Shown in pieces: positions 195 to 63,605 of a stretch of DNA of 64,000 nucleotides. A program made the translations under genes and the position numbers. This DNA is from Lytechinus pictus (Eukaryota): contig NC_087245.1 in the NCBI RefSeq assembly GCF_037042905.1, forward strand, positions 12,340,001 to 12,404,000, given 5' to 3'. The notes under the pieces are model-generated. The model saw nothing but the letters and a program-made list of their open reading frames with translations. It did not search any database and was not told the DNA's origin. Numbering within the stretch: the first letter of the stretch is position 1; the number at the start of each line of letters is the position of its first letter.

Positions 195-3100
195 CTGTAA
201 CAAAAACATGCAAGAAAGGTTGGAGAAAAGGATACAAAGATATCGCAGAGGGCCTCTCACTACAGGTCCTTTCAGACTTGGATTACTTTGTTAAAGTGTC
301 CTATGCTGAAATAATGTTCTTCCTTAAAAATGGTATATACTTGGTTCTCTTTGCACTTGTACTCATGCTCACATAATAGAGTGCCTCCAAGTAGATTCTG
401 AGCAGCCTATATCACTTGACTGATACTATCTGTCTAAACATACCCTGTCAGGCACTGGCAAAATTTTGACTGTATAAGTGTGTACATGTACCTGTTTCAG
501 CCGCATGCTTATCAAAACTTGCTTGCACTTCACAATTATTCATTTAAGCCTCATGTATCATATAGTTACATTTACTGATGTGAATCAAAGAAAATTAATA
601 CATGATATCATTTAATTGAATGGCATATAAAATATATATGTGTGGCGTCGCGCAAAAACCAGACTATTGGTGAGAGACAATGAATGCGCTAGGACGTCAT
701 TTAAATACGCGTGTCATCAAACTTTTGTCTGGCGCGCGTCGCGAGGAAAAACAAAACAAACAACCCGCGGGAAATAAAAAAAAATGTCAGGCGCATTTTT
801 ATTTTTCAGAACTGTGGATATCGGCTCGATATATTTGGTGGCGGGTTCGGATACATGTTGATTGAATTTAATTCCCTTGGCTGAAATCCATGAAGGTAAG
901 TTAAATTATGTTGCAGATTGAGTTGTTTTGTTAAATTAATTGATAATTGCGATGCGAGGAACATGGGCATGGCAACTAAACACGTGAATGTGAATTTTGT
1001 GTTGCGTGTTTATGTGGATCGATCGAGAGAGAGCTTTTTTAGGAACGTCTTCAAACGTCAAATTACATGCGACTGCTGCAGCGATTTGCGGTATTTGTCC
1101 GGGACTTTGACGGCCTTTTTAAGATCTAACTTATGTATGCCTAGGCTATCAACTAGATCTAGATCTGCACCTACTTAGATAGGCCTTCGTTACATACTTG
1201 TAACCATTTAAGTTAAATCTATCACATGCAACAAGTTTGTAAAAAATGTATATGAAAAAAAATCAAAATCGGACAAGGAGTAAAAGATGATAATTTAAAA
1301 ATATGGATTTCGGTGAAACAGTTCTATGCATGTTTTTATGAATTTACTTGACAAACTGATGCAAAGATGTCTCACCTTGTTACATGAAATTATGTTTGTT
1401 CTATCCCCCCCCCCTCCAAGACTAGATATTAATTAATGCAAAAAGGTGACATATCATTCACACACGTATGACCAAATAAAATAAGTATGATTTCATGTTT
1501 TGTTATAAGAAAAGTTAAAGTGGGGTGTCATCATCAGCCCATCTAACGAATATCTATTAAGACGTGCATATAACTGTTTTTATAATGCATGAAAAACCCT
1601 TTTAGATCATAGTTGTTTTCAGATTTTGATGAAATTTGCAGCTTTTGTTTACATTTGATGAAATTATTTTCAGCTCGGAGTACCCTTTTAAATCGGTTAA
1701 TTATAGACATTTTTCAAATCCCCTCTCCTAACAAATTCTTATTTGTCGGACTTCTGATTTCAATTTTTTTTTTCGGAGGGGGTGGGGTCTATTTGGTATG
1801 AGCTTCACCAAAGCTGTGCAAATGATATCGAAATTATAACTCGAAAACAGATTGTCACAATTTATAAGAAATTTATTCAAAAATAACAATATATTTTGGG
1901 GGCGGGTGTGGGGGGGGGGTATTTCTTATTTTTTCTACAATCTGGTCGAGCTACATTACATGAGGTTCGCCAACTTTCTACACAAAATCATTCAATATTT
2001 AAAAAAAAATGAAAAGACATATTTTTGAAAATAAAAAAAAATTATAGTTTTAATTGTTTTTTTTTTTTTTTTTTTTCTTAAGTAGTGTTTTTTTTAAAAT
2101 AAACTTTAACTCTGAAAATGTTTAACTAATTGGCCTTGTTTTCTTTCGTTGTGTTAAACATGTTAAGGGCACGGGATCTACAGAGCAATGAGGACAAGAC
2201 ATCACCAACATACAGCTGACAGCAGCCCTTCAAGAAGTACTTTAAGACTCTGATATGGGATTCACCATTACCACAGCTTCAGGTAGCTTTCCATGCTTTA
2301 TCCATATTCTATATGGAAATAGTGTGCCAGTTTTGACCCTTATCATGTCAGTTGTAACCATAAAGATATATACTAATAATACATCTCTATGGTTGTAACC
2401 GATTTTTCCACGAATTAATTGCCGTTTTATAAGATATTGTTTAAAAATTAATTTTACCACTATTAGTACATGAAATCTAGAATTATGGAAAATATAAAAA
2501 ATATAAAATGATAAAAACAATAAAAAATGAAAAAAAATATATAGAATTTGGATAAAGGCTCATGCAGAGAAAGCTTTTTGCAAGTGATATATGATATCAA
2601 AATTAAACATTTAAATATGAACATCTCATGAATTTTGGAGGGATTTTTTTACCTAACAATAGTTAAATCTTATTATTTTTGGTAGAAAAATATGACATCA
2701 GGGAGTACTTCCACCTTTATTAGAAATACAAGTAACATTGACACAAAGCCAAAGAGTGAAAAGTTAATGTATTTTAAATATCATGTTGTTGATAAATGTC
2801 CATGAATCATGAAGAAATGAGAGTGTAATGTGACTGTTTTTATAACACATTAATATCGGTGAACTTTTCAATTGCATTCATCAAAAATGTAGATTTGAGT
2901 CATCGGAACGTGGCATTTTTAAGACTGGAACATGAAGAAAGCAAACAATGCAGAGGAAGAAAATTATCCCCTTTGGTGAACCCTGCTGACATAGTCTCTC
3001 AGATACTGGATTTTCCAAATAGAGGGAATATGATATATGGAAAGATCTTAGATGAGGACAAGGCACCTCGCGGCCTCCCCGGTAGGAGAGGAAATTGAAC

Positions 3101-6100
3101 AATGAATACATGTTTTACTTTGAATGAACAAACTCTGAAGTTTTTCGATAAAAAAATTATACTTAATTTGTAACGTTTGCTAACCCATTAGAAGGATGTC
3201 ATTGTAGAAAATTGAAATATGGTAAGTTTGCTGCTGTAATAAGAAGTTTGTGATAATGTTAAACACACACACTAAGGAGAGATTATCGTGTTTTACATCC
3301 TTTTTAGTGCAAATTTGGACAGTGGAGAGCGATGCACATTCCTGAATTTTGCTAATACTGCTGCATAGAAGAGAGTAAATGTATGTAGTCTCTTCCATAT
3401 CAAGAATTAAACTCTGATATTATTTTTTTATTCAAGCATAAGATGTTTACAACGCATACCATTACACGTGTACAGAGTGTAGCAGAGAAAAGATGACTAT
3501 GTATTTGTGAGTATTTGTTAGTTATAATACCTGTCGTATTAATATGTGGAGCCAAGTTTTTATGCACAGTTTTATTCTTATTTTCAAACGAAGTGACCTA
3601 AAAAAAATCCTTCAGTGATCCAGATAATTTGGCAGCAATTTGTGAAATATATTTTCATGACTACCCCATCCCTAAAAAGAAACCAAATGTGGTCCATTTC
3701 ATTAAATGTTGATATGATCCCTTGCTCGAATGAAAACTACCATGAAAACAGTGAACCTTCTGCTTCCTGATTCGCTAGTTCAATGAAAGTTGATATTTCA
3801 TCAAGAGTTGCTGTCATATTAAATCTTTATGAAATGTAGCTCGCATCAGCTTTTTTACCATTGTGTATTGCCACCGAAAAAACTTGGTTTTGCAAAATTG
3901 AATTTTGTTTGTGGTTATTTTCCAAAGCTTAAGCATGATTTTTTTTAGATTTTACTTTGCGAGAAAGTGAAGTATGGACCAACAGCAAGGTGGTGTCTTT
4001 TTTTTTGGGGGGGGGGTGGTTAAGGGTAGGGACAAATCTAGGATGGAGGTGGGCAGGGGCTTTGGCCCCACTTTTTTCCCCCAGAACGCATGTATAAACA
4101 TGTAAAAAATTACCATTTGATTGTGATTTTTTTTTTTGCATGGACAGCCCTTCCTATTTTCAAAAAATGTTCTGCGGCGCCTGTGGGGGTGGGCATCCCC
4201 CAAAAAATGATAAGCTGCCCCCCCCCCCCCCCAACAACAAAAAAATCAGATATATAACCCAACCTCATCTTCCCCTGGTCATTGGATCTGGGAACCTCCT
4301 CCCATTTTAAAACTACGCGCTATGACGAACTATACATAGTATGACAAATAGTCTCCATAAGGTTTTTTTTTTGCATGTAATGTGAGTGTGTGGGTGTGGG
4401 TTCTAGTGTGGGTGTGGTTGAATATGTAGAATAATTTGTTTTATTGTATTCGCCTAGCTGTGTATATATAAAAATTATGTCTGCACTACAAAATATCACC
4501 TCGCCTATGCCAGGTATGTTGGGCGTTACAAAGGAACCAACATTTCCCTATCATGAAAAGATGAATAATAAGCCCGACTACCATGACGACCCAAACAGCC
4601 AGGCAGGGGGGGGGGGGTATCCCTGATTCAATTGGCCATATCTCTAATTTAAATATGAATTAGACTCTAATATTTTGTATACACATGGTACATGTGTCCA
4701 TGTACCAGAAAACATTAAAAAAACAAAATCCAAAATTTCACCTATAATACCCATTTTCCCAGGATGGCCCACATATAATAAACAGCAACAGTAACAACAG
4801 CATGGCAGGAAATCATCTGCCAAAAAGTGTGGAAGCAATAAAGTCTGCCTTTTTGGCACTCTGCTGCTGTCCGAGTTTTAACTGGAGTTGAAGCTATGAC
4901 ATTACTAAAGCTACCTTCTCATACTATTTGAGCAAAATGTGCACTAGGTCAAGTAAATTTTGCACAGTCTATCTGATAAAATCTAGATGATGACAAATTA
5001 ACATTTTGAGTGCTAATTACAGCTTTACAATATAAATTTGTGTTTCACAGTGGAATACAATGTGTTGTGTTTGCATGCTATCTTATACAACACTATTTAA
5101 TATGTGTACATGACATGTGATGGTAAAACACAGATCTGTAATGTGGACTGTGCTCTCTGTGCTATATTCTGGTAACTATATTTATTGGTGTAAAGGTCTC
5201 ATGTGAAGCAATGCTGACATTTCTGACGTAAATACTGAATTGTTGTTACATATTCATATAATCTTGTCAAGTGCAAAGGGAGAATGGAAAATATATTCTA
5301 GAGAAATGTGTGGTAAAAATCCAACATGAACAATATTCAATATATAATACATGTACATAATTTACTTTACTTATATACTTGTGCCACTAGTTTTAACATG
5401 CCATGCTATTAATCTTACCTTGAATTTCCTCACTCTCTCCTCCCATGGCTTTGGAAGTTGATTAGGATAACATTTATTACGGGAGGTAATTCATAATAAT
5501 CATTCAGACAAGATGGAGGGGCTACACCTGTCTGCTAGTGTTCTGCTCTTCTTTTTTCCCCTTTATGTCATTATGTATAATATATTACAATTAAATGGGT
5601 GGGTGGGTGAGTGGGTGGACGAACGGACAGATGGATGGATAAGTAAACTACTTGCTTATCTGCAGTTACTTTATTCTTAACAGCTCTTATTGATTTTACT
5701 GATTGGAATAAGCCTCTTTGAAGTTAGTTTTATATTACTATTTTGAAACATTCACACACAGGCAGTGTTTATTTTCTAAATTACAAGAATAACATTAACA
5801 GTCAGAATTGATTAAAGGTCCTTACGAATAGTAACCTTTTGGAATGACCTTGTTTGAATGAAACAAAGTCTAAAATATCACATGAAATAATAATCAAAGA
5901 ATTTTCAATTTTCAATTTTGCCTGAAAAATGGTATATCGTACTGTACATACTCAATTATTTATGATTACCTCATCAGGTTTGAGCGGGAAGCCAACAATA
6001 TCAGCCATCTGTTCCCAATGACGATCTCTAAGACCTGGGTTACATACTGATGTGACCAATGGGATGTACTCCTTGAAGTTATCCACCTACAAAGCAAATG

Positions 6101-9100
6101 AAGCCAATTATTAGTGAGATTAATAGGTCTTTGAAGAGTAGAAACAAAATTGTATTTGGGTTGTATGGCACACAGTGAATGGGGTTGGGTCATTTTCAGG
6201 TCTGGTCATACCTTGTCTTTGACTTTCTCAGCAATCTTCTTAGCAGTAGGTACCTCCGAGAATTGCTTCTCAAGCTTATAGAGTGTCCTCCAGTAGTTAC
6301 CCATATCAGCATCCACCTGATCAGGGTTCACTTCAGAGAAAGCACCTTCCATCCAATTTCTGTTAAAGTCAAATCAAGAAAACAAAATTACAATAAGAAA
6401 TGACCAGAGGGTTCTGAAATCTTTTAGAATTAACTACAAGCCTTGAAGTATTGCCTGAAAATGCATTGCCTCTAACTGGGTTCAGACTTCCTCCATCAGA
6501 TAACTGACATTCCTAGATTATGCTTAAGTTCTGTTAAAGGTTCAGAATGCCAAATAAAGTGTTTGAATATAGAAGATAATATTATAGACCATAGAAGCAG
6601 ATTAACAGTTATCATCAACAATTTTCTCTAACAAGTAATTCATATGTTGTATGGCATATGGGGCCCTGGCAGGAATTCATTCTTGATTCGCAGAGTGCAT
6701 TACAGCTGCTCTGCTAAAGTCATGGTACCAATACTACATTGTTGAGAGATATTTGTAGCTAGAGATTTATTATTATAATGAATTTAATGTTTTGCCACAA
6801 TTAACATAAAACTACAAAAATATGTTCAAAGTGTCTATAAGTGTCAGGCCATACTTAGTCAGCCCTTGTGCTCTTCATATTCAAGAAATGGCAAGTCATT
6901 CATATCCCTATGCTACATTTCACAAAAAATAAACCACAGGTTCATTGCTACTTACTTGTGCTTTGTGTTGAATTCTACAGTAGTTTCATAGAGCTTGAGG
7001 TACGGGGTTAGGGTGCTGACGATGGTATTCTTATGAGGATAAGCAGATGTCTGCCAGCCAAATGACTCTTCTTCTGTGTTGAAGGCTTCAATCTGTGTGA
7101 GCAGAAAACGAGACAAAATCCATTCAATCCATGAAGAACCTCGAGAGACATGAACTATTCAAGAGCTTTCATATTGTAGTCAAGAGGGTCAAGAATGTCT
7201 CATCATTACTGAACACAATGTGTGCCTGTCTTACCCCCCCCCCCCCCACCCCTGAAGATTATTCTCTCTGTATGTTATATGTAGACTTATACCCCAGTCA
7301 AAATGATGAAGTAATTACCTGCAATTGACTGTACATACTGTATTAATTAAAAAAATATACTCAACTTCTTAATCTGGTTATTTACCCTGCAAATACCTGG
7401 CCCTTCATGGGTCTTGAAAGGAGTTTAACACAAGAATTAAATAGCCAAGGTTTTAAGTTGATATAATAACAAATTGGAATTAAATTCTAGTTACAGTAAA
7501 CTTTTCAGACCTTCATATCCAGTTTGACAAACCTGGCTTTGGATCTGGAGACTGGATATTGTAAGGCATATAATAAAAGTATTCATTATCTCTTTTAAAA
7601 TGAAATTAGATGACAAATTGACATACCTTCTCTGCAGCTGCTTCAAGCCTGTTGCTGAGAGCCTGGGCTTTTTTGAGGTATCGATTGACCTCTGACAAAT
7701 CACCAAATGTCTGGAATTCCTCAAGCTGCTTGGTGTAGCTCTCCAGCTCTTCTTGGAATCTCTCTCTCCTCAACTGCAAAGAAATTTAAACAAGTGAAGA
7801 GAAAATTAAAATTGATATCAATAGAGGAGCTGAATGAGTTTATTTGTGAAATAAATTGAATTACACTGAATAAATTTATGGAAGTAACAAAAGGCAATGA
7901 TAAATGCCTGAATGCACACACAAAAATAATTATTGAGAAAATCCTTGATGCAGCAAGCACATTGGAATGATTAATTTGTACATGAAAAGATATATGAGCA
8001 AAGAAAAATCACATTAAAAAATTATTAGTATAACCAGAGCAGAAAGTATTGCAATCAGAATGAACTCCATCAAACAAATGAAAATATGATTTTGCAAAAA
8101 TTGAAAGTGAACATTTTGGACTTTCAATTGATATTGTGAGCTGCGTTAAAATGCAACTTTTTCTGCATCAGGGCCCAGTACAGGTTAAATCTATCATCCG
8201 CAGCACTGGGTTTGAACCTGAAAGATGACCTACCGTGAGTCCCTCCTGGTATTGGGCAGTCTTCTCATCTACAATGGTCCTATGCTCTGCAAAGATCTCT
8301 GGCATGCGCTCATGCCACTGGAACGTACTGCTGTTCAGACGTATCTCAGCGGGAGAAAATGAGGCATAATCCACCAGGAAGGTTAGTCGGTCCCTACTTT
8401 GGACCAGGTCCTTCTCAAGCTCATGGATGGTCTTCTTCTCAACGTTCTCAATAAATGCCCGCAGTTCCATTAGTTTCTCTGTGTTTGGAGGTGTGGTGAG
8501 AGCTTTCTCGGCAATGGCTTCGTATTCTTCACACAGTCTAATTGAATAGAACATAGAAGCAGGAATTAATATTTCATTTCACATACTAAAACAATTTCTT
8601 CCTAGAATTTAGTATTGAGATATTATATCAACTAATAAAGCAATGTCTTTGTACTCTCAAGTTCAAGTGAGACATATAAGTAGCAATAAACATTTCATAT
8701 CAGAAACTTACAAAAAGATCTTTGAGTAAACACAACTAAACAACACATTCCTATCTGTGTTATCAGCTAAGATACAATTTTTTTAATCCATGTGGAATAT
8801 TGAACCTTCTCAACAGGACTTATGATGCCAAGGAGAATTTTTTCACATCATCTGATCCTGGGGCAGGTCTTATAAAACTTGTTATAGTAACAAATTTGCA
8901 ACACCAGTTAAAACCTACTGAAGATACCCTCTAGGGAGACTTGATGCCAGGGGAGATGTGCTCTAGATTTGTCATACTTGGAAATGATATTGAGGGAGTA
9001 ATCCTGTGATGCTTCTCACCTGTGTGCTTAGGAATACATGCATGAATAACCCTATGACTGTTTCATTGTTTCATCAACATCAAACTTAAGAAAATGATTA

Positions 9101-12100
9101 CTCTGACTCACTTGCGGTTGGCTTCAGCATGATCCTTGCACATCCTTGCAAGGAGGCGTTCCATCAGGCTTTCAGCTCTCTTGGAGAGGGCTCGGATCAG
9201 TTCATCACAATGCAGCTCAAACATGCCTAATCTCACCACCTAGGATATGAAAATCAAGAACCCACAAATTATCATGATGTAATCAATGCCAAAAAATCAT
9301 TACAAAATTTTGTCATAGTGTCCATAGGTGTTGAGACGAATCATGTTTATTTAATAAGCTAATAAATGTGCACTGAACACTTCATGTCAACAAACAGGGT
9401 CCAAACTTTCTGGGAAAATCTTACAAAATCATGATAGATTATTTCGCTTTTACTTGTTTTAATTTTCTCTAACTTGTTTTTAAAGAAGGTCACACAAATC
9501 CACAGAAACTTGCTGTAACTAGCAAAATTGGGAAGCAAAATAGGAGGCATTCAGTTTAAATTTATCGACTTGCAGAAGTTTACCTGTATGCCAATATACC
9601 ATTGGTTGTTACAAGAACAGGACATTTCAAGATTGTCAGTAACTTACTGCTGCCTAACAAAAGAATATCTGGTCTCCACCCATAGGGAAAAAAGGCATAA
9701 TTAGCAAAACAAATGCACTTTAAAATCTTACAGATCCCCAAAACAAAAGCAGCAAAAAAGCTAAGCGCTTGCACATCAGAAAAAAATAACTATGAAATAT
9801 AACTAGTGTTGACAATGTATCTGTTTTTAAAAAAAAATGTTAACAGGATATATCTGTTCATGTGTGGGTCTAAATTTAATGATTAAAAAAATAGAAATGT
9901 GTGTTCTTATCAAATGCAAAACAAATAAAATTGCAGTAATGCAGAAAAACTATATGTGCAGCTGAAGTTTTCAGATATCTTGTATCTTAAATTCGACAAA
10001 TACAAAATAGTGGTGACAGACATATTTATATTACAATCTAAAACAAAAACAGATGTAACAGTTAATTTGCGCATTGCACAAACAGACACAGCACATTCAA
10101 CATTGAAATTAAACAATTAAGATGTATCTATTTCTAATCCACATGTACATTTAACTTGAGAAAGGGAAAATCATTGTGTTATTGTTCATCTAATGATGAT
10201 CATATGTAACAGAGAGAGATAGTGATGATTAAGTACATGTATGAGTGAAGGTAGAAACATGAAATGCTTAAGTGATATGCATTTGTACAATTCATTTGAA
10301 AAAAAAGGTTCTACTAATTAGATAAATAAAGAAATGTCATAAAGATTTTTGAGTCATTAGTACTCATGTACGAACATCAGCAATAATGTACCAATAGATA
10401 TATGAAGTGCTTAACATTTAACATGAAGACTAATGTTATAAATTGTGATTAGTGGCACCAGAACGTTCTGATGAGATGAAAGATAAGAGGGGCAAGCTAT
10501 TTTGTGTTAACGATAGTTGCTCATCCATTCCTTTCATAAGAACGTTCTGGCATCACTGCTTGTGATAAGGTCTCCTGATGTTCATGGTTTTAAAAAAGTC
10601 AAATTAGACAAATAACTTGACTGCAACTTATTAGACAGTTTGATTCAATATACTGGTAGTTGTGCTTTGTTTACTATGGTAGAAAGTGCTAGATACATGT
10701 AAATCCAGCTATTATTATTATCATCATTATCTTACATATTTCCATCTAAAATTGTTTAAATATCAGGTATTGCATTATATAAATTGATGGAGATGATATT
10801 TGTAAGAGTGTAAAAGATCTAAATAAGTACATTAAATTCAGTAGTGCTGGATATATGGTCATAAATATGTGTACAACTAATACTTATTTCTCATAAGAAT
10901 TTACAGACCTTTTCCATAATTTCCACATTCTGATTTATGGAACAAATAAGAAGAATCAAATCAATTCATACAAAGTGAAGAAATATTTTTCTTTTAATTC
11001 TTGCAAAAAGGTCAATATCTATTACATAATTATTAGTATATATATATGTCATCAAGAGAGGTAGCAGAACTTGAATTGAAAAACAAATTCATAATTTGAG
11101 ATGTTCTACACAATGAAAAATTTTCATTCCTAACTTGCTTACCAATGTCAAAAAATACAAATTATTCCACAAATGAATTAATCTACATTAGCATACTGAC
11201 TTGACTGATATCTTAATGGAAATATAACACCATGTATTGATTACTTTTTGTACATATCTTCATTGAAATGTAACACTTTGTAGTTATTACTTTCTGTTAA
11301 TATTGAATTTTTCTATGAAAATTTGAGTTTAAAAAGATACCTTGGATTTGGATTTGCCAAGAGTAATGCATTAAATTATCTAAATGCAAATGCACCATCC
11401 ATCCCAGTGAATATCTGACATATCTAGGGAAACTATTTTCAGACGGAATATCTTGTACTTTTGATAGATTAGTCATGTGACAAGTGTTAACATAATGAAG
11501 TACTTGTGAACTCAATGGAAATGGGGGAATTGGTAACCCCTCAATAAAACATATGGAAACAATAAACTTCAGTTGTCAAAGAGTTGATTAGAACAGACAG
11601 TGTCCAGTTATACACACAAAGAAAATGTAACCACAATATGTTAACAAGAGCCCACTTCAACCAATCACAACAAACCTTTCTCTGATCAGCACCATCCTAA
11701 ATCAAACAAGTAAAAATCAAACAAAATGAAGAAAGTAACATTTAAACATAAACCACATAACTACATTCATGTCAATTACATGAATGCATATTAGAGATCA
11801 CTGTGTGTGTTGGGAGTTTAAAAGCCATCTTCTGATTCTATGAATGGTATGAATTGGAAAGCAAATTTGATTTCTAAGAATTATTTTGTGACTTTAATTC
11901 TGTTGTTTTCCTTGTCATTTCTTGATAGCTAATTTCAAATTTTGTATGGCTTCTGTTACTCTAATGGCATATATTTTGTACATACAACAGAGTTGAGATT
12001 AACCAATATAGAGATCTTATCAATAACATTGTGCTTTCCTATAACCATCCACACAATAGCCATTCAAAATAAGTGTAAATACATACAAAAGAGAAATATC

Positions 12101-18100: not shown

Positions 18101-19242
18101 GTTACAAACAAAATAACAATTTTGAAATAAACTTAATTGGAAAGGGTCACTTCATAAAATAAGAAATATAATGCATAGGGATTGAAGCTGATTAAACCTG
18201 AAATATTCAAAATAGTATCCCTTCCAATTATTACAAACAGCCCATCTTAATTGTCATTTTGAGCAATACAAAAAAAAATAATAAGTACAGAAACAAGAGA
18301 CTCTTGAAATATATTCATATATTCCCTATATACAGGTATCCAAATCTTCAACCCTCATGGAAATTTTCACAAGCAATGCTACTCATATTTTACATTTCTT
18401 AGAAATCATATTTACTATAATTCTCATTATTGGTACATGTACATGTACATACAAATGTCCAAATGCATAATATCTGAACAGTATACATGTAGGCACTACA
18501 TTTGAAATATATGCATATGTACTCATAAATAAAAAAAAGTGGAATACAAATTTATACTGATCACAATATCATACTAATAAATTTAGCACATTTAGGTCAA
18601 CACAAATAAAATAGAAAATGGAAAAAAGGACATTATCAACATTGATGGTTACAATGTCTAAATTAATGTAAATCAAATAATCAAAAAGTGTTTATCACTT
18701 ACTGCAGGTAATGTTGGCAGAAATGACTGAATGTCATCTGGTTTCTTTCCTTTATTTTTTAGAGGAGCTTGATACTGCATAAAGAAAAGGATAATAAAAT
18801 AATGTTCCAATGAAAGAATGTGCTATCCATAAATCTGAATCACTTCCACATAGTAAACAGGCATATTCCATTCAATCCAATTTAGGTTTAGGGGAAGGCA
18901 GGGTAAGTTAAGTCATTTTTTGCTTTTTGCATGTTAGGACCGACTAATAATCTTGTAGAAATAAGTACCTTGCCGTAAAATTTAATTATTTAGAAACATT
19001 TTTTACCAATATTACTTTCTACTCCCACACTGAAAGGCACTGTCACCTTTGAAAAAAAAATCAAATGGCTCAACTTGCCCCACCCAGCCATGGGGCAAAA
19101 AGCAGCATGATATTTTATTATTTAAAGTCTTTTCACTTGCTAATTCTATACAGTGTATAAATATACTAAAATCCTACTAAAACAACTGTCTTGTGAATTT
19201 GGCCCTTTCTGCCTGTATATCAATAGCTTTGTAAGGTTTGTT

Positions 19243-25644: not shown

Positions 25645-25735
25645 TTCCTTTAGATTGTGCCGCTTAATTTTTTATAGTAATATTAAGTATTTGATATAGG
25701 CAAGACAAGTAAGTGTGGAAAAGACTGGTATTGAA

Positions 25736-40837: not shown

Positions 40838-41221
40838 ATGTCACGCCAAGCGATAATTAGTCGAAACTTTTCAGGTCTAACCAAGTGCAACCCACCACCG
40901 AATATACTCTTGAATGGGGAACTCACCAGCAGTATCATTAAACATGCACAGAATATTAGTGCCAGCCTTTACCGGAGCTGTGCCAACCAAACCCGCACTT
41001 TCTCACTACTCGCCAGAAATTCACGAGTCAGTGACCACTGTGGGTGTGAGGAGACCGGTCTTGATGGATTTAAAGTTGCAAAGGCCCATCCCAATCAGAA
41101 GGGTTTTATGTTGCAATACCAAAGATGGAAGAGTGATTTCTTCAAGATCACCATGCCCAATGACTGGAACTCTATGTACTCTCCCAACCTGACACAGGAT
41201 CTAAGAAGATTTCTAGAAGAG
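40838..41221 (+). CDS. NAGS: NAGS first coding exon (exon begins 40713; MSRQAIISRNF...DLRRFLEE)
   Basis: Acceptor TTGCAG at 40712, AATATGT start context, GAG|GTAAGT donor, 384 nt coding, phase 0. Confidence 0.85.
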
Positions 41222-53200: not shown

Positions 53201-56200
53201 TTCTTCATACTAGGTGGGCACGGATCCGAAGGAAGCACGCTATTGGTTGAAACAGTTCCAGCGATTAGGAGGCAGCCATTCCAAGCCCTTTGCTGTAGTT
53301 CAAGTCCATCAGGAAATCTTCCAGAAACCTGATCTGGTAAGAGAGTTATCTGTTTAAATCGGGAGTCAGGATGTTAAAGGACAAGTCCACCTCAACAAAA
53401 ATTGATTTGAAAAAAAAAGGAGAATAATCCAACAAGCAAAAAACTGAAAATTTCATCAAAATCGGATGTAAAATAAGAAAGTTATGACATTTTAATTTCA
53501 CAAAAACAGTTATATGCACATCCTGGTCGGTGTGCAAATTGGCAGACTGATGACGTCACCCACTCACTATTTATTTTGTATATATGAAATATGAAATATT
53601 CTAATTTTCTCTTGTCAAGTGAAACAAAGTTTTATTTCTCCCTGAACATGTGCAATTACCATTATTTTAACAGTTTATGGTTAAGTTAAGTTGGTCCTTA
53701 TCGTCAAATCTGTAAAAATTGAGATATTGTATTATTCAAACAATAAAAAACAAAAGAAATAGTGAATGATGGACATCATCGACTCTCTCATTTGCATATC
53801 GCTGAGTTGCGCATTGAACTGTTTTGTGAAAAATATGCGAAACTTAAAAATGCCATAACTTTCTTATTTTACATCCGATTTCGATGAAATTTGCAGCGTT
53901 ATGTTTCTTTGATTTTTCTCTATCTATTCAAATCAACAATTTTCTGGGGTGGACTTGACCTTTAACTACAAAGTGTAGTGATTGATTTTACACTGAGGGC
54001 TGACATTTTGTGATTTATTGCATTGGTTATTATTTGTAATCAATCATACTTATTAATTGTATGATCAATACTTAACTTTTTGTTACAGGCCCCTGATTCT
54101 GGATATTGAATTTTCCTTGTAAAAAGAGTTTGATCTCACAAAACCTTCATGTATTTCAGTCTAGATTCAACAATATTCACAGTTATTTACTTTGTGGGTT
54201 ACAAAGGTGTTTTTTTTTCTTCAAATCTGTGTTCTCATGATGTGGCTGGGTTTTGTACTCACAACCATCTGTTTCAAAGGCGTGGGTCAGAAGTCAGCAT
54301 CGCCATCCATGGCGCTCTATAAAAAAGGGCAATTTATGACACTAAAGGTGGTTTCAAACCGCCTCGATCACAAGAATCCCCGTTAAATTACGAGAACTTT
54401 TATAGGCTGAAAAATACCCATTAATTATTCCTGCATTCACACCGCCCTGAAACATACCCTTCGGGATAAGTTCCTGAAGTTACGAGCATGCGCAGTATGG
54501 TCTGATAAGCAGCAAGGCGCGAAATTCAAAATCACTAGCCCAGCAGCAACCCATGCACGGCGCCGCACCCAACGACACGCTGGGCTAAAAGTTCCCGTAA
54601 TTTGCTTTCAGACCGCCAAAATACCCACGACCTTGGAAAAATCCCCGCGAAAGTTCTCGTAATTTCGCCAAGTACCTACTATTTATCGGGTATTTTCTTT
54701 CGGGGATATTACGCGTAGTTTGCTTTCACACCGCCAAAATACCTGGTATTTTCTGATCGGGGTAAATTTCCCGATCAGAGAATACCTGGAACTGGCGAAC
54801 TTCGAGGCGGTCTGAAACCACCTTAATAGTACATTTTTGTACACAGCCTGTCACCAGCTTACATGTACATGTGACATCCCTCCCCCCCCCCCACCCCCAA
54901 AGAAAAAAGCAAGAAATCATATTTCTGCTACACCTTTTCATGAAGTTTTCAAGAAATATTCATTTATACATATGTTTCTCTTATTTCTATGCTTTTGTTA
55001 TAACTAGTTTAACGACTGGGTGTCCTCCCCCTTAACATATGCCACCAGTCATATGCTCACCATTCGTTCATGAAGAGATCTACAATTCATCATCAGCACA
55101 TATCTGCAAAATTTACATAAGAAAAGGAAAATCTTTAACAATGAGTCCTTTATGTCAATTTTGTTTGTATGTACATGTATAATGATAATGTCCCTTGGGA
55201 ACTTGTGGTGGTGGTGGTGGTAGTAAAGATGAATGGAATAATTTTAGGAGCAGAGACAGCACTGACTGATGAGATTTTTATTAGATATCCCTCCAAATAA
55301 AACAACCAATACAGAGTAATGGGAACTTAACAAGCTACATGTACATTAGTATACTCTCGATGAGGCTTTATGATAATATATTGCATCCCAGAAACTGAGA
55401 ATTGTCAATGTTATATCTTTAAAAACTATATACATGTAGTCACCCATGAGTTGGAATTTCATAAATTAAACTTAGGCTTGCATTTTATTTTATTTAGGAA
55501 TGATTACTGTAACAAATCAGACTTGGGTGATGTCTAATGACATCCCTGTTAGTTCATGATTTTCCCCATTCCATGTCTTTCCTTTGAAATTTATTATGTT
55601 AGTAGAAGTCAACTTGGGCATGCATTTGGGAGCCAGTATCGATGATGTATAAAACAAGCTTGTTCAGAAAAAAAGATCAAAGTATTGTAGTTTATGAGTA
55701 CAGCATATGATACAATGTGAAACTGGTACTGTAGAGCTTGAATAACTGGCTTGAAGGTAATGCTATTGAATATGTTGTGTATGCATTGATAGGTTTATCC
55801 AATAAACACAATAGTATAAAAGGATTGTATTGTGAATAGTTTGTATTAAGAAATCAATAGTGGTATTATGAAAGAGTATTTCACTGACACTGGTCATGAG
55901 TGACTGAGAGTATATGTGATCATGTTCATAGTTAAGGAATCAATGAAAATCAAGGCGACATTGTTCAGTTTGACAGTAGCTGTTGCCTACAAAATTAAAT
56001 TTGTAACAGCTGAATGAAGCAATTTTACTCTCAGCAAAACAAATACTAAACATTTGATGTGTCATGTTCAAACCAATTATTATATTTTTATTTTATTCAA
56101 GGAAATATATTTTCTTTGATTGATAGTGCTTCAGCTTTGTTGGTGTGTCTGTGACACTGGCAGAGAATAGGAAATAAGAGGCGTTGAGCAGTGGCACGAT

Positions 56201-59200
56201 TTTGAGTTTTAGATGTATTTGACAATCACAGCAAAACATCTCATTAGGATCCTCTAGAGGTTAGATTAATATCTCTGCAGACTTTGCTTTTAAAAGCAAT
56301 CTCTGCTACTACATGTATATTTTGGCTTTTCATGATATTAATGAAAGAATATTTCATGACCAGAAGTAAACTGGCCTTCAGATTTTGGACCCTGAAATTT
56401 TTCATGTATATTTTTGTTTTTAATCATTATAATTTGATACAATATTTTGAGTTGTATGTTAAGGTATAGCTATAGGTTCATGACCTAAATTATGCAAGAA
56501 ATTAATATTCAAATTATTTTATATTAGTGAAAATAATGTAATTTTAAAGTGTGAATTACCAGTAACTATATGACATTTTTTAAATTTGTTTTTGAAATAT
56601 TTTGTGTTTCTTTCCCTCTCCCGTTTCTCCCCTTTCTGAAACTTCTTGTCTATCCCACCCCTACTCCTCCATCTCTCTTTACCTCTCCCCTCCCTTCCTC
56701 TCTCTCTCTCTCTTTATCACTCCCCTCCCCCTCTCTCCCCCTCTCTCTCCCTCTCTCTCCCTTTCTCTCCATTCGAGATAGCTTGAAGCATTGAGCTCAA
56801 ACCTAGCATTCCTACATCGTAATGATATGAAGTTACTGGTTGTCCATGGGGCTTCTCTGCCAGATGGAACAAACTTGTCAGATCAAGAACTACAGGTATA
56901 ACCAGAATGATCAGAACCAAAGTATTATGCAAGAGATAAGCAATGAGTGGAAGAGTGAGGACATTTTTTCAGGATTTTGAAGTGCAAACCATGCAATCGT
57001 GCACATTCCAGAAGTATAGTTTATAGCAAGTTTAATGAATTGCGAAAGTGCACTGATCTATTACTCATTTAAAAAATATGAATAGTGATGAAGGAGGCCA
57101 TATGGGAAATATTTAATGTCTGGTCACCCTAAGTCAAACTCATCATTAAGACTTTTCTGCTGATATTTATCTCTGATAGAAGTCCACTTTTAAAGGATTA
57201 TGAAACTCTTGGAGCAAGTTAGCTTTTGTGAAAGCAGAAAAATCAAAGAATACGATCAACAAAAGTTTGAGTAAAATAGGACTAGCAATAGAAGAGTTAT
57301 GAGCATTTGAATGTCGAGATCACTAATGCTATGGAGATCCTCCTATTGGCAATGCGACCAAGATCTATGATGTCACAGATGAACAACTCTCCCCTTTTGG
57401 ACACTGAAAATATACCCCAAAACATCTCTTTTTGCTCATTCTAATCATATGACAAACGATTCATCAATGATATACTGTTGTGAAACCTCTGTACTTGTCC
57501 TCTCATAAAGAGAACACCTCACCTTGTGATAGACTCTATAAAAGTGAGAATATAAGTGAAATAAGTACTAAAGTAATGAGGGAGTTGTACGTGTGTGACA
57601 TCACAGATCTTGGTCGCATTGCCAATGGGAGGATCTACATGGCATTAGTGATCTCAATATTCAAAAGCTCATAACTTTCTTATTATTCATTCAATCTTCC
57701 TCAAACTTTCAACAATATGTTTCTTTGATTTTTCTCTTTGATATGGATTCAGCTGGTTTCAAGGGTTTCATTCTCCTTTAAGATTAAAACAAACATGCAA
57801 AATAGTAGGGTAAATAGTATTATTACCATTTTGCATTTTTCATTATCTTTTGAAATAGTTTGCACATTGAAGGCGTTCTATATGCAAATTAGTTAGCTTA
57901 TGATGTCTTTGCCTTACCTTTTCTTGATTATTTTACTTTAGTATGAAAGCAAACGTTATCTTATTATTTCATTTGACTCTTCATAATTTTTTCACTTATT
58001 GCTGTTCTTCGAGACAATCAACCTTTTCCATCCAAGAGGAAAAATCCCTTCCTTGTATGAAAATGAATTATAATAATGATGATCTCACACATTACAATAT
58101 CCAAATTATTTGTACGTTTAGGGTATCCGAACAGGAGTTGCATTTTATATATCATTCTTGAGTCTTAGTGTATCCTTCTTTTCGGATGACATTCTATTAT
58201 CTGTTTTGAACATTTTTCCTGTAAAGAGGTCTGATTTGAATACCGGAAAGTGTATTATTGAAAACATTCCGTTATCAATTTAAGCGTTTCACATATTTCT
58301 TGGGAGAAAACATCTGATAAGGTCCTTTCTGACCCACAGGCAAGCCGTAGTCGAGTGACCACCGATACCATGACCATGGTGAACTTTCTTCAAGCCAGTG
58401 GTGCTCCTGCTCATCCACTGTTCTCAGGGAGCAATGTGTTACAGGCAGAGCCAGTAGAGGAAGGGGCCTCTAAAGGAAGGGTCATTCATGTCAACACAGA
58501 ACCGTTAGAGTGGTGTATAGGGTAAGGTTATAGTGGAGTTAAAGGAAATAGAAATGTGAAATTTATTTTATTGCATGAATGTACGTTATATCAGGAAAAT
58601 TTCTCTGAACATTACAATGTGCTGCACTCAAACCAGGTGATATAAAAAGATGCCGGCGGGAAGTAATTCCTCAAAAAGCTGTGAGCACCAGAATTGGTAG
58701 CCTAGCTTTGCTGGTGGGAAGTATAGCAGCACATAACAAAATGGATATGTGTGCAATATTGATACCCTATATTGTTGTTATTGTTGAATATTGCTAATTT
58801 TTCCTTCCAATTCTCTTTTTTATAAGTAATTCTGTAAAAAAACAAGCCCCCACCCCAAAGTATATATATATATATATATATAAATATATATATCATAATA
58901 GATCCGCCGGAAAGGTGAATTTTGTTGTCTTTTCTCATTGTTCACAATTCGCCTAAACGCCCTCTACATTCGCCTATACGTCGAAATGTCTATTATGACG
59001 GAATAAACCCATTCATAGACTTCGCCGCCCTTCCGTAGGATGTAGGCATGTATGGGTCTTAAGGTATTTTTTAAATTTTTTATGATTATGATATTTTTAT
59101 GATTATAAAATTTATCTTTATTTGATAAGGAAATTTTCGAAAATGATTTTAAAAATTTATATTATTTGGAATGACTAATGATGAACCCTTTTATTTAATC

Positions 59201-62200
59201 ATTAACTTTGATGTCCCGTGCATAAGAAGGCAGTTGTCCCAAGTAAATCTTCGAGAAATATTCATAAGAAAACAATTTTGTGATGATAAAAGATGTTTTG
59301 AATTAAATTCATGGCAATTATGTGTAGTTAAATGAACAGGAAGTATTTTACTATTTTTCTTAGCACTTCATAAAAAATAAAAAATGAAGTGACTGTCTGA
59401 ATTGCTCAGATTACTTATGAGTTTGTTGATTGAATTATGTTGAATGAATTTGTTTTGTTTGATAATTCTTTTATAGAAAGCATTAACTTAAAGCATTAAC
59501 TTCCATCCCTTGTGTACTTAAAAGGTGCCAATGTCTCAACAACAATTTTGTTTTGATTGTTTTGTAGATCTGGACATATACCTGTAGTATCATCTATAGG
59601 AGAGACATCTAGTTCTCAGTTAGTTAGTATCGATGCTTCCCACGCTACCGCAGAGATTGCCAAGGCTGTACAACCCATCAAGGTGCTTCTACTCAACAGG
59701 AAAGGTGGTCTACTAGATGGTAAAGGAGAGGTTAGTCATATCAATTATTTAAAGGTTGGTTTATTTGGTGTACCTCTGATACTGCATTACTGGTGGGTGT
59801 TTCATAAAGCTGTTCGTAAGATACAAATGACTTTAGGCACGACTGGTGATCCTTTCTTGTGCGATGTGATATCCCTTTATAATTGATTTATGACCTAAGA
59901 ACATGTTCCAGTCGTAGTGCGTAAAGTTATGCATAACTTTACGAACAGCTTTGTATTAGATGATGCTAACGAGATATGTTGGGGCTATATAAACCTGTCA
60001 GGGTGCTTCTCTCTATTCAAAGGAATGGAGATATTGTAGATGGGGAATGTGACTGCAATTCTGGGATTAGAAGATGCAAGTGGAGGGATTCAGATGGAAA
60101 TGTTGAAGTTAGTTGATTTCTTGTTCATATAATCCATTTTATCTGTGCCTTAAAATGAGCTTAATATCTTGATTTAATATAATGTTGGCACAATACTTTA
60201 TAGGACACTTCATCTCTCTCCCCCAGTCTTAATCACTTGTTTGATTTATATTGCCATCTTTTAATGTCTTGTAATACAGGTCATCCCACAGGTTCATGTA
60301 CCAGCGGATGTAGAATCCCTTGTTGATGAGCCGTGGTGCACTGATACCTGTCAGCACCGGATTCATGATATTTCCACCATGCTCCAAGCGCTTCCTTCCA
60401 TGTCAAGTGTAGTTATTACTTCACCTGAGAGCATCTTGGCAGAACTGTTCACGCATCATGGTTAGTAAGAGCTAATAAAAAATCCAAGTGTTTTCTATTA
60501 TTATTATTATTATTCTGGATGCTTCATAGATGGAACAGAAAATTGGTACACAGGTTTGTAAAAGAAACATCAAAATCTTTCCGATTTTAAGTTGTCTATA
60601 AACCACACAAAATTCCCTATCGAAGTCAACCTTTAATAATATCTAAGGGCTCATCTGAAGCATCCTAGCTGAACTATTCACCCACTGTATCATATCAAGA
60701 TGGACCATACCCTAAGAGGTTGTCCTATAAGATTATTGTGATATATCGTGGATGGGCTGATAAAACCTTGTATCTCAAAATTTTTAGGGCAGCTCAGAAA
60801 AAGCTTATTTTAGAATTATAGCGATGGTGGCAGTCTCATATTGCCTGAAAACAGTCTCCTGATACCTGTGAAGAACTCTTTTGAGGCAAAACAAGGTTGC
60901 TACCCATGTTATAACTCTAAAATCTAGCTTATTTTCAGCTTTCATAAAATTGTTTAAATATTGAGACACAAGGTTTTATCAGTCCAGCCATGACAAGTAT
61001 TAATACAATCCTACAGTACCATGGTGAAACTCAAAATCAAACTGTAGAGTTGCATTGGCTTTAATTCTATCTTTTGCTTAAAAAAATAGTATTAATAGTA
61101 CTTTTGGTTATTTTTCAGGGTCAGGTACTTTGTTCAAGAATACAGAGAGGATATGGAAGTACTATGATCTAGAAAATATAGATACAGATAGACTTTTAAA
61201 ACTTATTACAAGGTAAGTGATGCATTTTATACATAATTATATACACTATATGTTCAATCATAACAAAAAGCAGTCTTAGAGATCCATTTAATAGTGCCAT
61301 TTAAGTGCCATGTTTTAAAAGTAATCTGTTGGAACAACCATTGTCTCCTTTCTCACAGGTCATGATCATTTGAAAGCATTACAGCTTCTCATGTGAACTA
61401 TAAAGCAGAGACAAATATTTTTTCAGAAAGGTTTCACACAAGGTTTGGATATTATACAAGTACTTTATGGAATTACCCGGCATTAAAGGTGCATTTATAC
61501 CATTGATATTGAGAAGGTAATAATGATAATAATGGATTCATGCGATGAAACTGATTTTTTTTAAATATGGGCAATTATTATTTCTAATTTATTTATCATA
61601 GTATTTAGCATTCTCATTATTTTTTCTTTGGTAAAGGGTAAATGAAGCTGAGTGTTTTTCATAGTTTCAGTCTTTTTAGCAAGAGGGAATTGAATTTGAA
61701 TGATGATTACATTAGCTGTTAGCAAAATGGAAATTGAAGGGGTGAAACACAGCAAATATGTAGGGAGATAAGGGAAATGGATCTTGAGATTTGAAGATTT
61801 TAGAGAGACAATTTTATAAGGATGAAACGTGGACAGGAATTGAATGAGGAAAACACACATTGTATGAGGTGCATACATGTAGTTGTATGTCTCTCTCTCT
61901 CTCCTTGCTATGCTGTAAATATCAGCAGCAAACCTTATTCCAAACAACAAAAACATCAGAAATTGTGCCCTTTTGCAGACACCATATTGTAAGATAAATG
62001 TTTCATGACCTGTCAGTTGATTCTTTACCTGCTCAAAAATATGTTGGGAGGCATTTGGAAATATTGAGAATTGATAAAGCAATATGGACACTAAAACATG
62101 TGAGCATTGTAGCAGGCAATCCTCTTCATGTTAATATCAAGTACACATGATTAATCTCATTTTAAAGTGTCTCATCTCAAGAGCATTGATACATGAGGCT

Positions 62201-63605
62201 TTCAAGCTTAGATTTAATCTTCTCATGCTGCTTTAGTTTTTATGATTCTTAGTCTTCTGTCATGTTGTCATGGTGATGTCACATGCATTGTCCATATATT
62301 GTGATGAGATGTGTTGCGAGAGTATTCTGTTCATTGCTCAAGTGCTTCAGCTTTTACAGAGAAATTTCCATCCTTGTTCAGGGAAGAAGAGAAAATATCA
62401 CAATATTTTTTTTCAGCTTTTAATTTTGTGATTGATATATCAATTGATTTTTCATTTTTGTTTTTCATGAAATATAAGCAAACTATGCAAATGTTAAATA
62501 TATTGAAACAATTACAAATTAAACAAAAAGAGAAAATAATTAGTGCTCTGGCATTAAACAATGAATTCAATTAAATGTGAGAATTATGGAAAGCTGCAAA
62601 ATATCAGAGAGCTTTAAAAGTGGCTTGCCAATGTGTTACTAAAGATTAAATGACAATAACGAATTATTCATAAAACAGTATACTATTTTCAAAAGGTATC
62701 AATTCTCATACTATGAAAATAATGGTAACGATTACATGTATCAAACACTGCAATATCAATAATATGTTCTTTTTCTCTCTCTGTCATGCTCTTTTTTTCT
62801 TTCTCTCCCGTCTCCTTTGCCACTTTTGTGTTTTTTTATTGTTTTATTCTTCTCTTTTTCTATCTATTTTGTCCTTCCATTATTTCTTCCCCTCTCAATA
62901 TGTTTTTCTGACTGCTGTCTACATTGTTCTGTCTCCCCATTCACTTTGTTTTGCTCTTTCTCTCTTCCTCTTTTCCTATTGATCTCTCTATTTTGTTTTT
63001 TTTTCCCCATCACGCTCCATCTCCTTCACGTCCCCCTTTCCTTCCCCCTTTTCCACTTTACTCTATCTCTCCAACCCTTCTCCTTCCTCTCATCCCCCTC
63101 TCTCAACTTGGGAAATTGCAGAAGTTGAAAAATACAGCTGCGCGTATTGTAACTCTATCTAGCAAGTGCAGCCACATCACCCCTATATTAAAAACTCTTC
63201 AAGAAATCATGGGGGAACGGGCCTTTGCTTATGCTGTCATGCAGGGCCAAACCTGTGGAATTCTCTTTCACAGAGTTTGAAAAACCAGACTTCAGTGGCC
63301 ACCTTCAGGGCCAACCTGAAGACATATCTGTATAAGAGTGCTTTATGACAGACATTGACTTGTTCTGCTCTGAAGCGCCTTGAGCATCTAATCAAGATGG
63401 AAAATACGCTATACAAGTCTTATGTATTATTATTAACAGATCATTTGGTAGAGTACTAAAGAAGAATTACATAACTGATCTTCCCAGACGACTCCATACT
63501 ATATACCTTTCTGAGGGATACAATGCTGTAGCTATCATCACTAATGAAGATGATGTTCATAATGTGCCTTACCTAGACAAGTTCTCTATAAGTCTTCAAA
63601 CACAA
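40838..63605 (+). CDS. NAGS: N-acetylglutamate synthase, mitochondrial type (first 469 aa, 8 coding exons; continues beyond window end)
   Basis: Exons 40838-41221, 53214-53336, 56782-56895, 58340-58521, 59568-59730, 60280-60460, 61119-61212, 63440-63605; GT-AG introns and one open frame (1407 nt). Motifs DLRRFLEEVGTDPKEARYWLKQFQ, KPFAVVQV, LAFLHRNDMK, GHIPVVSSIGET, ELFTHHGSGTLFKN, IYLSEGYNAVAI and PYLDKF match the vertebrate-type NAGS kinase-like and NAT domains. The Arg/Ser-rich, acid-poor N-terminus fits a mitochondrial targeting peptide. Confidence 0.95.
43762..43906. mobile_element. Harbinger-like MITE (145 bp)
   Basis: TIR GGG(T/C)CCGTTG(C/T)AGAAAGAGTTGCA; 3-bp ATG duplication at 43759-43761 and 43907-43909. 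Confidence 0.8.
47778..47987 (-). mobile_element. 5'-truncated SINE with L2-like tail
   Basis: Minus strand CCTTCAGCAAGAAATTTATCC...TGTGCTGCACT.GACCCA.GTGAGGTGAATGGGTACCCGGCAG...GCGCTATATAAATGCC(TAT)n; related copy at 58590-58792. Confidence 0.75.
48955..49544. mobile_element. MITE with 9-bp target duplication (MULE-like)
   Basis: TIR CCGG(G)nCCA.TT.CATTGACGAGTGGATA.CATGC.CGACC; GGTGACACT at 48946-48954 and 49545-49553. Confidence 0.82.
52302..52889. mobile_element. Kolobok-like MITE
   Basis: AGGTCAAGTCCACC...GGTGGACTTGTCCT; flanks TTAA/TTGA. Confidence 0.85.
53214..53336 (+). CDS. NAGS: NAGS coding exon 2 (VGTDPKEARYWLKQFQ...KPDL)
   Basis: TAG/GTAAGA, 123 nt, phase 0/0. Confidence 0.95.
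53378..53961. mobile_element. Kolobok-like MITE, same family as 52302-52889 but inverted
   Basis: AGGACAAGTCCACC...GGTGGACTTGACCT; TTAA on both sides; interior is the reverse complement of the 52302 copy. Confidence 0.88.
54346..54823. mobile_element. PIF/Harbinger-like MITE
   Basis: 22-bp TIR AGGTGGTTTCA(A/G)ACCGCCTCGA; TAA duplication at 54343-54345 and 54824-54826. Confidence 0.85.
56782..56895 (+). CDS. NAGS: NAGS coding exon 3 (LEALSSNLAFLHRNDMK...QELQ)
   Basis: TAG/GTATAA, 114 nt, phase 0/0, after a long CT tract. Confidence 0.9.
57194..57777. mobile_element. Kolobok-like MITE, distinct subfamily
   Basis: AGGATTATGAAAC.../...GTTTCATTCTCCT; TTAA on both sides; long internal inversion ATTGGCAATGCGACCAAGATCT.TGATGTCACA. 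Confidence 0.82.
58340..58521 (+). CDS. NAGS: NAGS coding exon 4 (ASRSRVTTDT...VNTEPLEWCI)
   Basis: CAG/GTAAGG, 182 nt, phase 0/2. Confidence 0.93.
58590..58792 (+). mobile_element. Degraded SINE fragment
   Basis: TGTGCTGCACTCAAACCAGGTG...GGATATGTGTGCAATATTGATACCCTATATT resembles 47778-47987 and 29964-30075. Confidence 0.6.
59568..59730 (+). CDS. NAGS: NAGS coding exon 5 (SGHIPVVSSIGET...LDGKGE)
   Basis: TAG/GTTAGT, 163 nt, phase 2/0. Confidence 0.95.
59790..59955. mobile_element. Short palindromic MITE, related copy at ~31292-31450
   Basis: TTTCATAAAGCTGTTCGTAAG...TTACGAACAGCTTT inverted ends; the block ACTGGTGATCCTTTCTTGTG is shared with 31410-31435. Confidence 0.65.
60280..60460 (+). 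CDS. NAGS: NAGS coding exon 6 (VIPQVHVPAD...LAELFTHH)
   Basis: CAG/GTTAGT, 181 nt, phase 0/1. Confidence 0.95.
60725..61016. mobile_element. Small MITE with imperfect TIRs
   Basis: CTGATAAAACCTTGTATCTCAA versus TTGAGACACAAGGTTTTATCAG. Confidence 0.6.
61119..61212 (+). CDS. NAGS: NAGS coding exon 7 (GSGTLFKNTER...LIT)
   Basis: CAG/GTAAGT, 94 nt, phase 1/2. Confidence 0.95.
63110..63434 (+). mobile_element. 5'-truncated L2-clade LINE remnant (ORF2 C-terminus and 3' tail)
   Basis: KLQKLKNTAARIVTLSSKCSHITPILKTL ... GERAFAYA / GPNLWNSLSQSLKNQTSVATFRANLKTYLY (frameshifted, internally deleted), followed by AGCGCCTTGAGCA...(TAT)n. Confidence 0.85.
63440..63605 (+). CDS. NAGS: NAGS coding exon 8 (SFGRVLKKNY...PYLDKFSISLQTQ)
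   Basis: CAG/GTGAGT, 166 nt, phase 2/0. Confidence 0.95.

Follow-up and report, generated by a model that had tools for sequence, protein, structure and literature searches.

In a 64-kb stretch of DNA (hereafter the window, within which all counts were made), we observed a real excess of the palindromic 8-mer TACATGTA (TA-CATG-TA). The window is animal DNA of 35 % G+C and, judged from its sequence, Lytechinus-type sea-urchin DNA carrying the genes DNAH7 and N-acetylglutamate synthase (NAGS). Together with a few sister words of the same build, TACATGTA probably records germ-line excision scars of cut-and-paste elements of the Tc1/mariner/IS630 type, which insert at TA and duplicate it. What we observed is an over-represented word with sharp TA boundaries, its stacking alongside partial units, a bias in the flanks, a partition by CpG content, and one clean insertion between paralogous repeat copies; from these we infer the element, the repair route and a feedback between scars and new insertions. 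For TACATGTA, excision scars fit best because of the stacking with partial units, the flank bias, and the failure of explanations based on local copying.

The word was counted 47 times between positions 483 and 62740, spanning the whole window, with the following starts:

483, 5348, 10234, 10694, 13730, 15557, 16915, 17671, 18434, 18440, 18484, 19383, 19771, 23602, 37559, 38100, 38591, 40536, 40749, 41591 (unstranded): word count, first 20 starts of TACATGTA, the putative main scar class

42066, 42127, 42245, 43394, 43449, 43987, 46174, 46299, 47182, 48000, 48142, 48405, 48463, 49899, 50499, 50762, 50772, 51187, 51328, 52028, 54860, 55172, 55336, 55431, 56310, 61874, 62733 (unstranded): word count, next 27 starts of TACATGTA

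The original prediction, an earlier reading of the same stretch, had put the word at more than 40 occurrences against about two expected, which was borne out, as base composition alone predicts 2.3. Markov models of order 2, 3 and 4 raise the expectation to 2.6, 3.7 and 7.1, respectively, so that the enrichment over a higher-order background, named beforehand as the test, persists at order 4; the order-5 expectation of 23 is inflated because the word itself feeds the model. The excess of the exact 8-mer is 18-fold, and in 200 dinucleotide-preserving shuffles of 1-kb blocks (mean 1.7, maximum 6) a count of 47 was never reached. It requires the whole 8-mer, since T-ACATGT-A occurs 47 times and the remaining 15 N-ACATGT-N words 0 to 8 times each. 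Tc1/mariner excision footprints have a short insert bounded by TA at either end, as does TACATGTA. One-mismatch neighbours of TACATGTA number 68 vs 51.2 expected (1.33-fold), which lies inside the range of three control words (1.09-1.36), and the age of the putative scars is therefore unreadable from this halo.

Sister words had been claimed as well, and here the shuffles upheld only part of the claim. Although the numbers for minor words are small, TACCGGTA (6 vs a shuffle mean of 0.2) and TAGGCCTA (5 vs 0.45) were reached in none of the 200 shuffles; TAGATCTA is weakly enriched (4 vs 1.1, reached by 4/200), and TAACGTTA is without enrichment (1 vs 0.6, reached by 96/200). Accordingly, among the several TA-targeting families originally envisaged, those with CC and GG ends are plausible and GA ends weakly so, while AC ends drop out as TAACGTTA is unenriched. 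Further counts are 6 for TATGCATA (shuffle mean 2.05, reached by 2/200), 4 for TAGGGCCTA plus its complement (0.2 expected), and 19 for TACAGTA/TACTGTA, which is about 2-fold up (9.6-10.7 expected).

At shared TAs the words form stacks, whose units are commonly the complete word or fragments of it:

50752..50779 (unstranded): stack of CA/TG-type units, parsed at shared TAs as TG, TG, CATG, CA, CATG

18434..18451 (unstranded): stack parsed at shared TAs as CATG, CATG, CA

22430..22553 (unstranded): dense stack parsed as GA/GG-type units (GATC, GGCC, GGC, GAC, GTC, G, C) between TAs, holding the palindrome 22459-22534

32604..33158 (unstranded): three small stacks parsed as CC/GG-type units (CCGG, CCG, CGG, CG), at 32604, 32806-32827 and 33141-33158

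The tandem TACATGTA at 18434-18447 and the double at 50762-50779, both pointed out earlier, were recovered with starts 18434/18440 and 50762/50772. The stack at 32806-32827 runs CGG, CCG, CCG, CCGG, and GGCC and GATC occur in common stacks. Among the 94 flanks of TACATGTA, a half-scar CATA/TGTA directly adjoins the word in 9 vs 1.35 expected (p 9e-6). Near TACATGTA, CA/TG make up 13 of the 31 two-letter units vs 5.6 expected, and near TACCGGTA, CCG/CGG make up 3 of the 7 three-letter units vs 0.1 expected. The inner part thus measures 4 letters in the main class and 2 and 3 in stacked units, a length that fits the 2-4 bp quoted for Tc1/mariner footprints in a passage of PMC7913693; with TA on both sides and 2-4 inner letters, the words appear to behave like such a footprint. 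Moreover, this series of units is what the joining of two 2-nt overhangs with varying trimming would give, which supports excision scars. Replication slippage with short tandem duplication could likewise build words and stacks: units are in tandem at 18434, 33145 and 54860, one-letter slips can give CCG/CGG and GGC/GCC, and of two insertions listed below, that at 37559 is bracketed by ATG repeats, and the +7 at 35046 could represent a CGTAA duplication. Nevertheless, tandem CATG adjoins only 5/47 sites, leaving 42/47 without the tandem template typical of a microsatellite, and slippage offers no reason to favour one palindrome 18-fold and is unable to seed it, which makes it a quite improbable source. 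The palindrome at 22459-22534 is 76 bp long and near-perfect, consists entirely of TA-punctuated units (GAGC, GATC, GGCC, G), and adjoins an 829-bp inverted-repeat element at 22548-23376.

Insertions at TA were sought between copies of the same repeat, among them the ends of miniature inverted-repeat transposable elements (MITEs) and the arms of foldback elements:

38740..38747 (plus strand): TACCGGTA, +6 (CCGGTA) relative to a paralogous MITE end that has a plain TA at 1681-1682; 11 MITE ends aligned

35002..35594 (unstranded): TAG-ended foldback with an 8-bp flanking duplication, whose left arm carries +7 (35046), +12 (35158) and +11 (35188) absent from the right arm; arm alignment

37559..37566 (unstranded): TACATGTA in one arm of the foldback 37515-38029, +6 relative to the other arm, clean only with one substitution allowed; arm alignment

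23596..23609 (unstranded): TATATGTACATGTA in the third copy of a 270-bp repeat; copy alignment

In the first pair, 38740 differs from the MITE end at 1678-1685 by a clean CCGGTA gain at TA with one substitution adjoining, just as had been proposed for this pair (~1678 vs 38740), and the difference is an insertion because related MITE ends keep the shorter spacing. A plain TA in the paralogous copy was cleanly found this once (38740 vs 1681, CC type); the CATG-type cases are either composite or clean only if one substitution is accepted. For the foldback pair at 35186, the proposed 6-letter gain did not survive, the real difference being 11 extra letters (GGCCTACATGT), readable as GGCC-TA plus CATG-T, while the +12 at 35158 can be read as GGGCC-TA, GGC-TA. 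As to the 270-bp repeat, the differing readings at one site were confirmed, in that the copies at 19966-20228 and 21960-22220 have TACCGGT(C/A) where the third has TATATGTACATGTA; the supposed empty TA, however, occurs in 0/3 copies, and the empty state is therefore only inferred. In total, one clean paralogous +6 at TA stands beside four further TA-bounded insertions in foldback arms.

The MITE with its end at 1678-1685, labelled Kolobok in the original prediction, has TTAA flanks and AGG/CCT ends. Ends related to a very high-copy 600-bp TTAA-flanked MITE lie at 1430-1690, 25734-26311, 30900, 38636-38760 and 57190-57781, and two copies of this MITE (52296-52895 and 53374-53965) lie on either side of the NAGS exon 53214-53351. 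All three TA-bounded insertions of the foldback at 35002-35594 are in its left arm (35002-35263), and one of them is TA-CGAGT-TA on the minus strand. A second TAG...CTA foldback occupies 36497-37489, one of these two having an 8-bp and the other a 9-bp duplication, and the third (37515-38029) begins 25 bp past the second. TAG-ended elements were considered as the source of TAGGCCTA/TAGATCTA and rejected for the 35-kb foldback sites, which are without a long duplication.

Hairpin-opening or fold-back footprints, as of the hAT and V(D)J type, carry an insert that mirrors the adjacent flank. Likewise, if a break next to TA were repaired by folding back (through a hairpin or template switch), the next two letters would be mirrored (TAXY -> TAXY-Y'X'TA-XY) without any transposon letters. 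Such copying would agree with the CC right behind the TA of the clean pair at 38740, and the 76-bp palindrome at 22459-22534 suggests that some of it took place at that locus. CA also follows TACATGTA in 17/94 flanks vs 7.4 expected, but this excess largely consists of stacked CATA and CATG units. A CA or TG flank to copy is present at 15/47 sites and absent at 32/47, so that the mirror-copy pattern is missing from most of them. Fold-back should furthermore favour the commonest AT-rich contexts, yet TAAATTTA (7 vs 5.6), TAATATTA (5 vs 3.4) and TATTAATA (4 vs 3.4) hardly exceed expectation. We therefore consider fold-back repair an unlikely origin of the words in general, though single cases such as 38740 or the palindrome at 22459-22534 may be due to it.

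The choice of site is biased as well. Relative to other TA sites of the same regions, position +3 beside TACATGTA has G in 2/94 flanks vs 15.6 expected (p 2e-5, before correction for 40 tests) and T in 47/94 vs 32.6 expected; when stacked flanks are left out, G stays low (2/69 vs 11.8). In the literature, Tc1 targets read CAYATATRTG and those of Sleeping Beauty RCAYATATRTGY, with T at +3 and a purine at +2 (Table 1 of PMC2577343), and the flanks of TACATGTA agree with them partly, in the +2 purine and the +3 T. A site-choosing enzyme behind the words is thus indicated, its family being left unproven by the flank bias.

The distribution of the words follows the gene map and the CpG content of the window:

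57..15325 (minus strand): DNAH7-like dynein heavy chain gene, 13 mapped exons (further 5' exons outside the map); mapping with relatives

40838..63605 (plus strand): exons of the NAGS gene; mapping with relatives

41225-53213 (unstranded): NAGS intron with 21 TACATGTA, 1.75 per kb and 2.1 per 100 TA, by count

20001..37000 (unstranded): CpG-rich stretch (CpG observed/expected 0.83), which by count holds a single TACATGTA but the majority of the TACCGGTA, TAGGCCTA and TAGATCTA words

The excess had been described as window-wide, which is right for its span (483-62740) and wrong for its evenness: a single site lies in 20,001-37,000 (0.06 per kb) vs 46 outside (Fisher p 8e-5, the boundary having been picked after the CpG table was seen), whereas 1-20,000 holds 13 sites, and the density in the DNAH7 body is 0.65 per kb. 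The local CpG ratio at TACATGTA has a median of 0.27 vs 0.38 for all TA (p 0.01). GG/GA/CC words behave in the opposite way, as their 9 clusters differ in local CpG ratio from the 24 TACATGTA clusters (p 2e-4), and the split holds with CpG-free words only (8 clusters, p 1e-4). CpG-poor DNA is generally read as methylated gene body. The CA type gathers in CpG-poor, presumably methylated gene bodies, and the other types in CpG-rich DNA. CpG-decayed TACCGGTA hidden in gene bodies was considered and rejected, TACCAGTA/TACTGGTA totalling only 3.

Two further explanations draw on this distribution. The CpG-poor setting would suit an origin of TACATGTA by CpG deamination of TACGCGTA in methylated DNA, which should produce the CA/TG combinations equally; the four counts, however, are 47 for TACATGTA, 6 for TATGCATA, 5 for TATGTGTA and 0 for TACACATA, with TACGCGTA itself found once, and CpG decay fails for this reason, leaving it a negligible likelihood. 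Alternatively, TACATGTA might be an intronic protein-binding motif under selection: it occurs only outside coding sequence, at higher density within gene bodies, and the same word reportedly figures in discussions of oomycete transcription-factor sites (PMC11134190 and PMC3520976). Its absence from mapped exons (0 sites for 196 TA) is, however, insignificant, as a rough estimate gives only ~2 expected, and a motif of this kind would not be expected as an insertion in mobile repeats, accompanied by partial units and avoiding the CpG-rich stretch between two genes. Selection for binding is accordingly very unlikely.

As for the genes themselves, 98 % of the length of the exon at 59566-59733 aligns at 100 % identity with a Lytechinus pictus protein named N-acetylglutamate synthase, and dynein axonemal heavy chain 7 is the match of the exon at 8234-8545. 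A second candidate first coding exon of NAGS, at 46712-46804, matches residues 1-31 of P0005 and sits inside the intron that follows exon 40838-41224, the latter matching P0006 and P0007. The CpG-rich stretch also holds two satellite arrays (27040-28240 and 33170-34970), one with a 27-bp unit and the other with CCAGTT/CCAATTGG-rich units of 10-31 bp and a 114-bp higher-order repeat. On the plus strand, a long pyrimidine-only and a long purine-only tract (20850-21550 and 26330-27050) oppose each other across this stretch.

A number of results weigh against excision scars and must be set beside the evidence above. First, the original prediction had looked to TA-flanked families with matching ends, and in two scans of the 64-kb window no inverted-repeat element between TAs ended in CA, CC or GG; the CA-ended hits were either two of the putative scars paired with each other or poor matches of AT-rich sequence. 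Where flanks could be read, the elements show 8-bp, 9-bp, 3-bp or TTAA duplications instead, and none of the 150 frames searched, out of 163 window frames of at least 62 residues outside low-complexity tracts, matched a transposase in Pfam. Second, the +4 scar TACATA/TATGTA is unenriched overall in the window (71 vs 65.6 expected), a flat count that is set against a +6 excess of ~44 words, and CAG/CTG are absent from the 20 three-letter units near CATG sites (1.1 expected). Third, without stacked flanks the gain at +3 is mostly C (21 vs 10.7) and not T (26 vs 22.8), and the T excess at +1 of published targets is missing beside TACATGTA. Fourth, the clean pair TACC -> TACCGGTACC is also compatible with fold-back copying, and TA-bounded units account for only 4 of the 16 well-flanked clean indels between repeat copies, under a filter for 3-14 letters that passed over the cases at 38740 and 23596. 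Fifth, in contigs of a relative, missing letters show no link with site density (rho 0.09, p 0.69). Finally, germ-line scars in Caenorhabditis elegans are rare and varied, and a uniform, dense record in the urchin hence needs a different repair habit.

Some candidates were set aside. A CA..TG-ended joint at 39210-39367 was dropped, its right side being without a TA flank, and 22548-23376 was left uncounted as a TA-flanked GA-ended element, since a TAG-ended element with a decayed 8-9-bp duplication fits it equally. Separately, an element of 372 bp at 30522-30897 ends in GTTTTA-(G)n and is flanked by TA at either end, and TAGTACTA, the scar that such ends would leave, occurs once, at 30597, inside this same element.

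Given a dominant word and target-biased sites in a window that holds neither a matching element nor a transposase, one might suppose that a transposase-like activity adds a fixed six-letter tag at TA without lasting insertion, for instance through failed integration or a transposase that has been domesticated, in which case an abundant matching family would not be required. Direct evidence for this is lacking, 64 kb is too small to call an element absent, and partial units are the product expected from end-joining real element ends; we thus hold the fixed tag to be improbable.

Comparison with other genomes was uninformative at the level of single sites. Read contigs mapped over 37,001-57,000 came from 4 of 10 listed runs at 80 % likeness and were swamped by high-copy repeats; the comparison with the window rests on 32 listed pieces, and none of the indels listed (12 of 724 rows) falls at a TACATGTA site. 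In run X10 (0.9 % substitutions), 11 of the 19 covered sites are certainly kept and the other 8 undecidable, but this run may be the source sample and is therefore not independent. In three runs of a relative (overlapping pieces, 6.1 % substitutions), 545 window letters are missing and 244 extra ones present; the net loss is the same in pieces with sites as in pieces without (20.6 vs 18.6 per kb), and the relative's contigs therefore give no support. Over 37001-57000 the window is consistently longer than these contigs (~6 % divergence), whether TACATGTA is present or not. Two metagenome-contig scans and one viral-contig scan contained no copies of the urchin repeats.

Returning to excision scars, we propose the following course of events. 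An element with CA...TG ends would insert at TA to give TA-element-TA, and its transposase would cut 2 nt inside each end, leaving non-complementary 2-nt 3' overhangs on the flanks, as is established for Tc1 (legend to Fig. 1 of PMC4490562). End-joining would mostly keep both overhangs, yielding TA-CA-TG-TA with a net gain of six letters, and would sometimes lose part of them, yielding TA-CA-TA or TA-TG-TA; these words are the ones observed. Each scar would double the TA and set CATG beside it, and as CATG before the second TA supplies three of the four letters of the CAYA half-site, re-insertion and stacking would be favoured, with repeated hits building the observed stacks. TACCGGTA, TAGGCCTA and, less surely, TAGATCTA would be like scars of CC-, GG- or GA-ended elements, and the CpG partition between the CA type and the others may stem from targeting or from survival.

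Among known systems, Minos, a member of the Tc1 family, leaves an excision scar that adds six letters at TA, its four inner letters coming from one end and being non-palindromic; in the urchin words, by contrast, the four inner letters would be two from each end. Minos excises and integrates in sea urchins and works in this very genus, according to a section of PMC11361634. Tc1 footprints in C. elegans (excerpts of PMC12632400 and PMC4490562) resemble the urchin words in the TA target, the CA/TG inner letters and the break with non-complementary 2-nt 3' overhangs, and the Tc1 scar TACATA/TATGTA appears here beside TACATGTA. However, this +4 scar accounts for 78 % of the somatic Tc1 events in C. 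elegans (PMC12632400) and is not the main product in the window, and germ-line scars there are rare and varied, with fewer than 10 at known sites in 45 wild isolates (passage in PMC4490562), whereas a uniform +6 scar would dominate here and be inherited at 0.65-1.75 per kb of gene body. The footprints of Sleeping Beauty and ZB (sections of PMC5224488 and PMC7913693) are TA-flanked and made of terminal element letters, as is proposed for the urchin words, and these elements have a palindromic target preference, which the urchin flanks match in part; ZB junctions read TA-cag (same sections), and the canonical Sleeping Beauty scar has three letters (cag/ctg; PMC5224488, same section), a type only ~2-fold up here. 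Natural excisions have likewise been read by genome comparison for Mariner/Harbinger MITEs in rice, 64 of 158 being Mariner excisions, but those scars were found between two genomes at known elements, are varied, and do not show up as a single over-represented word (PMC5023962). A scar of this kind is textbook knowledge; its density, uniformity, stacking and CpG partition were not found in print, and the literature covered (older subscription papers and supplements lying outside) does not describe, for echinoderms, a field of +6 scars this dense and uniform, or TACATGTA as a scar spread across the genome.

A DNA transposon that has been excised usually leaves little to be seen, and turnover is consequently estimated from surviving copies alone. 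Here, one intron has the tag at about 2 in every 100 of its TA sites. As a tentative extension, which strikes us as possible rather than probable, urchin germ-line repair would uniformly keep both 2-nt overhangs, so that each excision leaves a family-coded tag (CATG, CCGG, GGCC, GATC); the tags would form a genome-wide, countable record of lost insertions, improve targets and seed TA-punctuated arrays, with CA-ended elements homing to methylated gene bodies and GG-, GA- and CC-ended ones to unmethylated regulatory DNA. If the tags are scars, germ-line end-joining in the urchin would be unlike that of C. elegans, a common class of six-letter indels and a “motif” that turns up often when these genomes are searched for motifs would be explained by mutation and not by regulation, and counting words would read out the excision numbers as well as the target and chromatin preferences of past transposon families.
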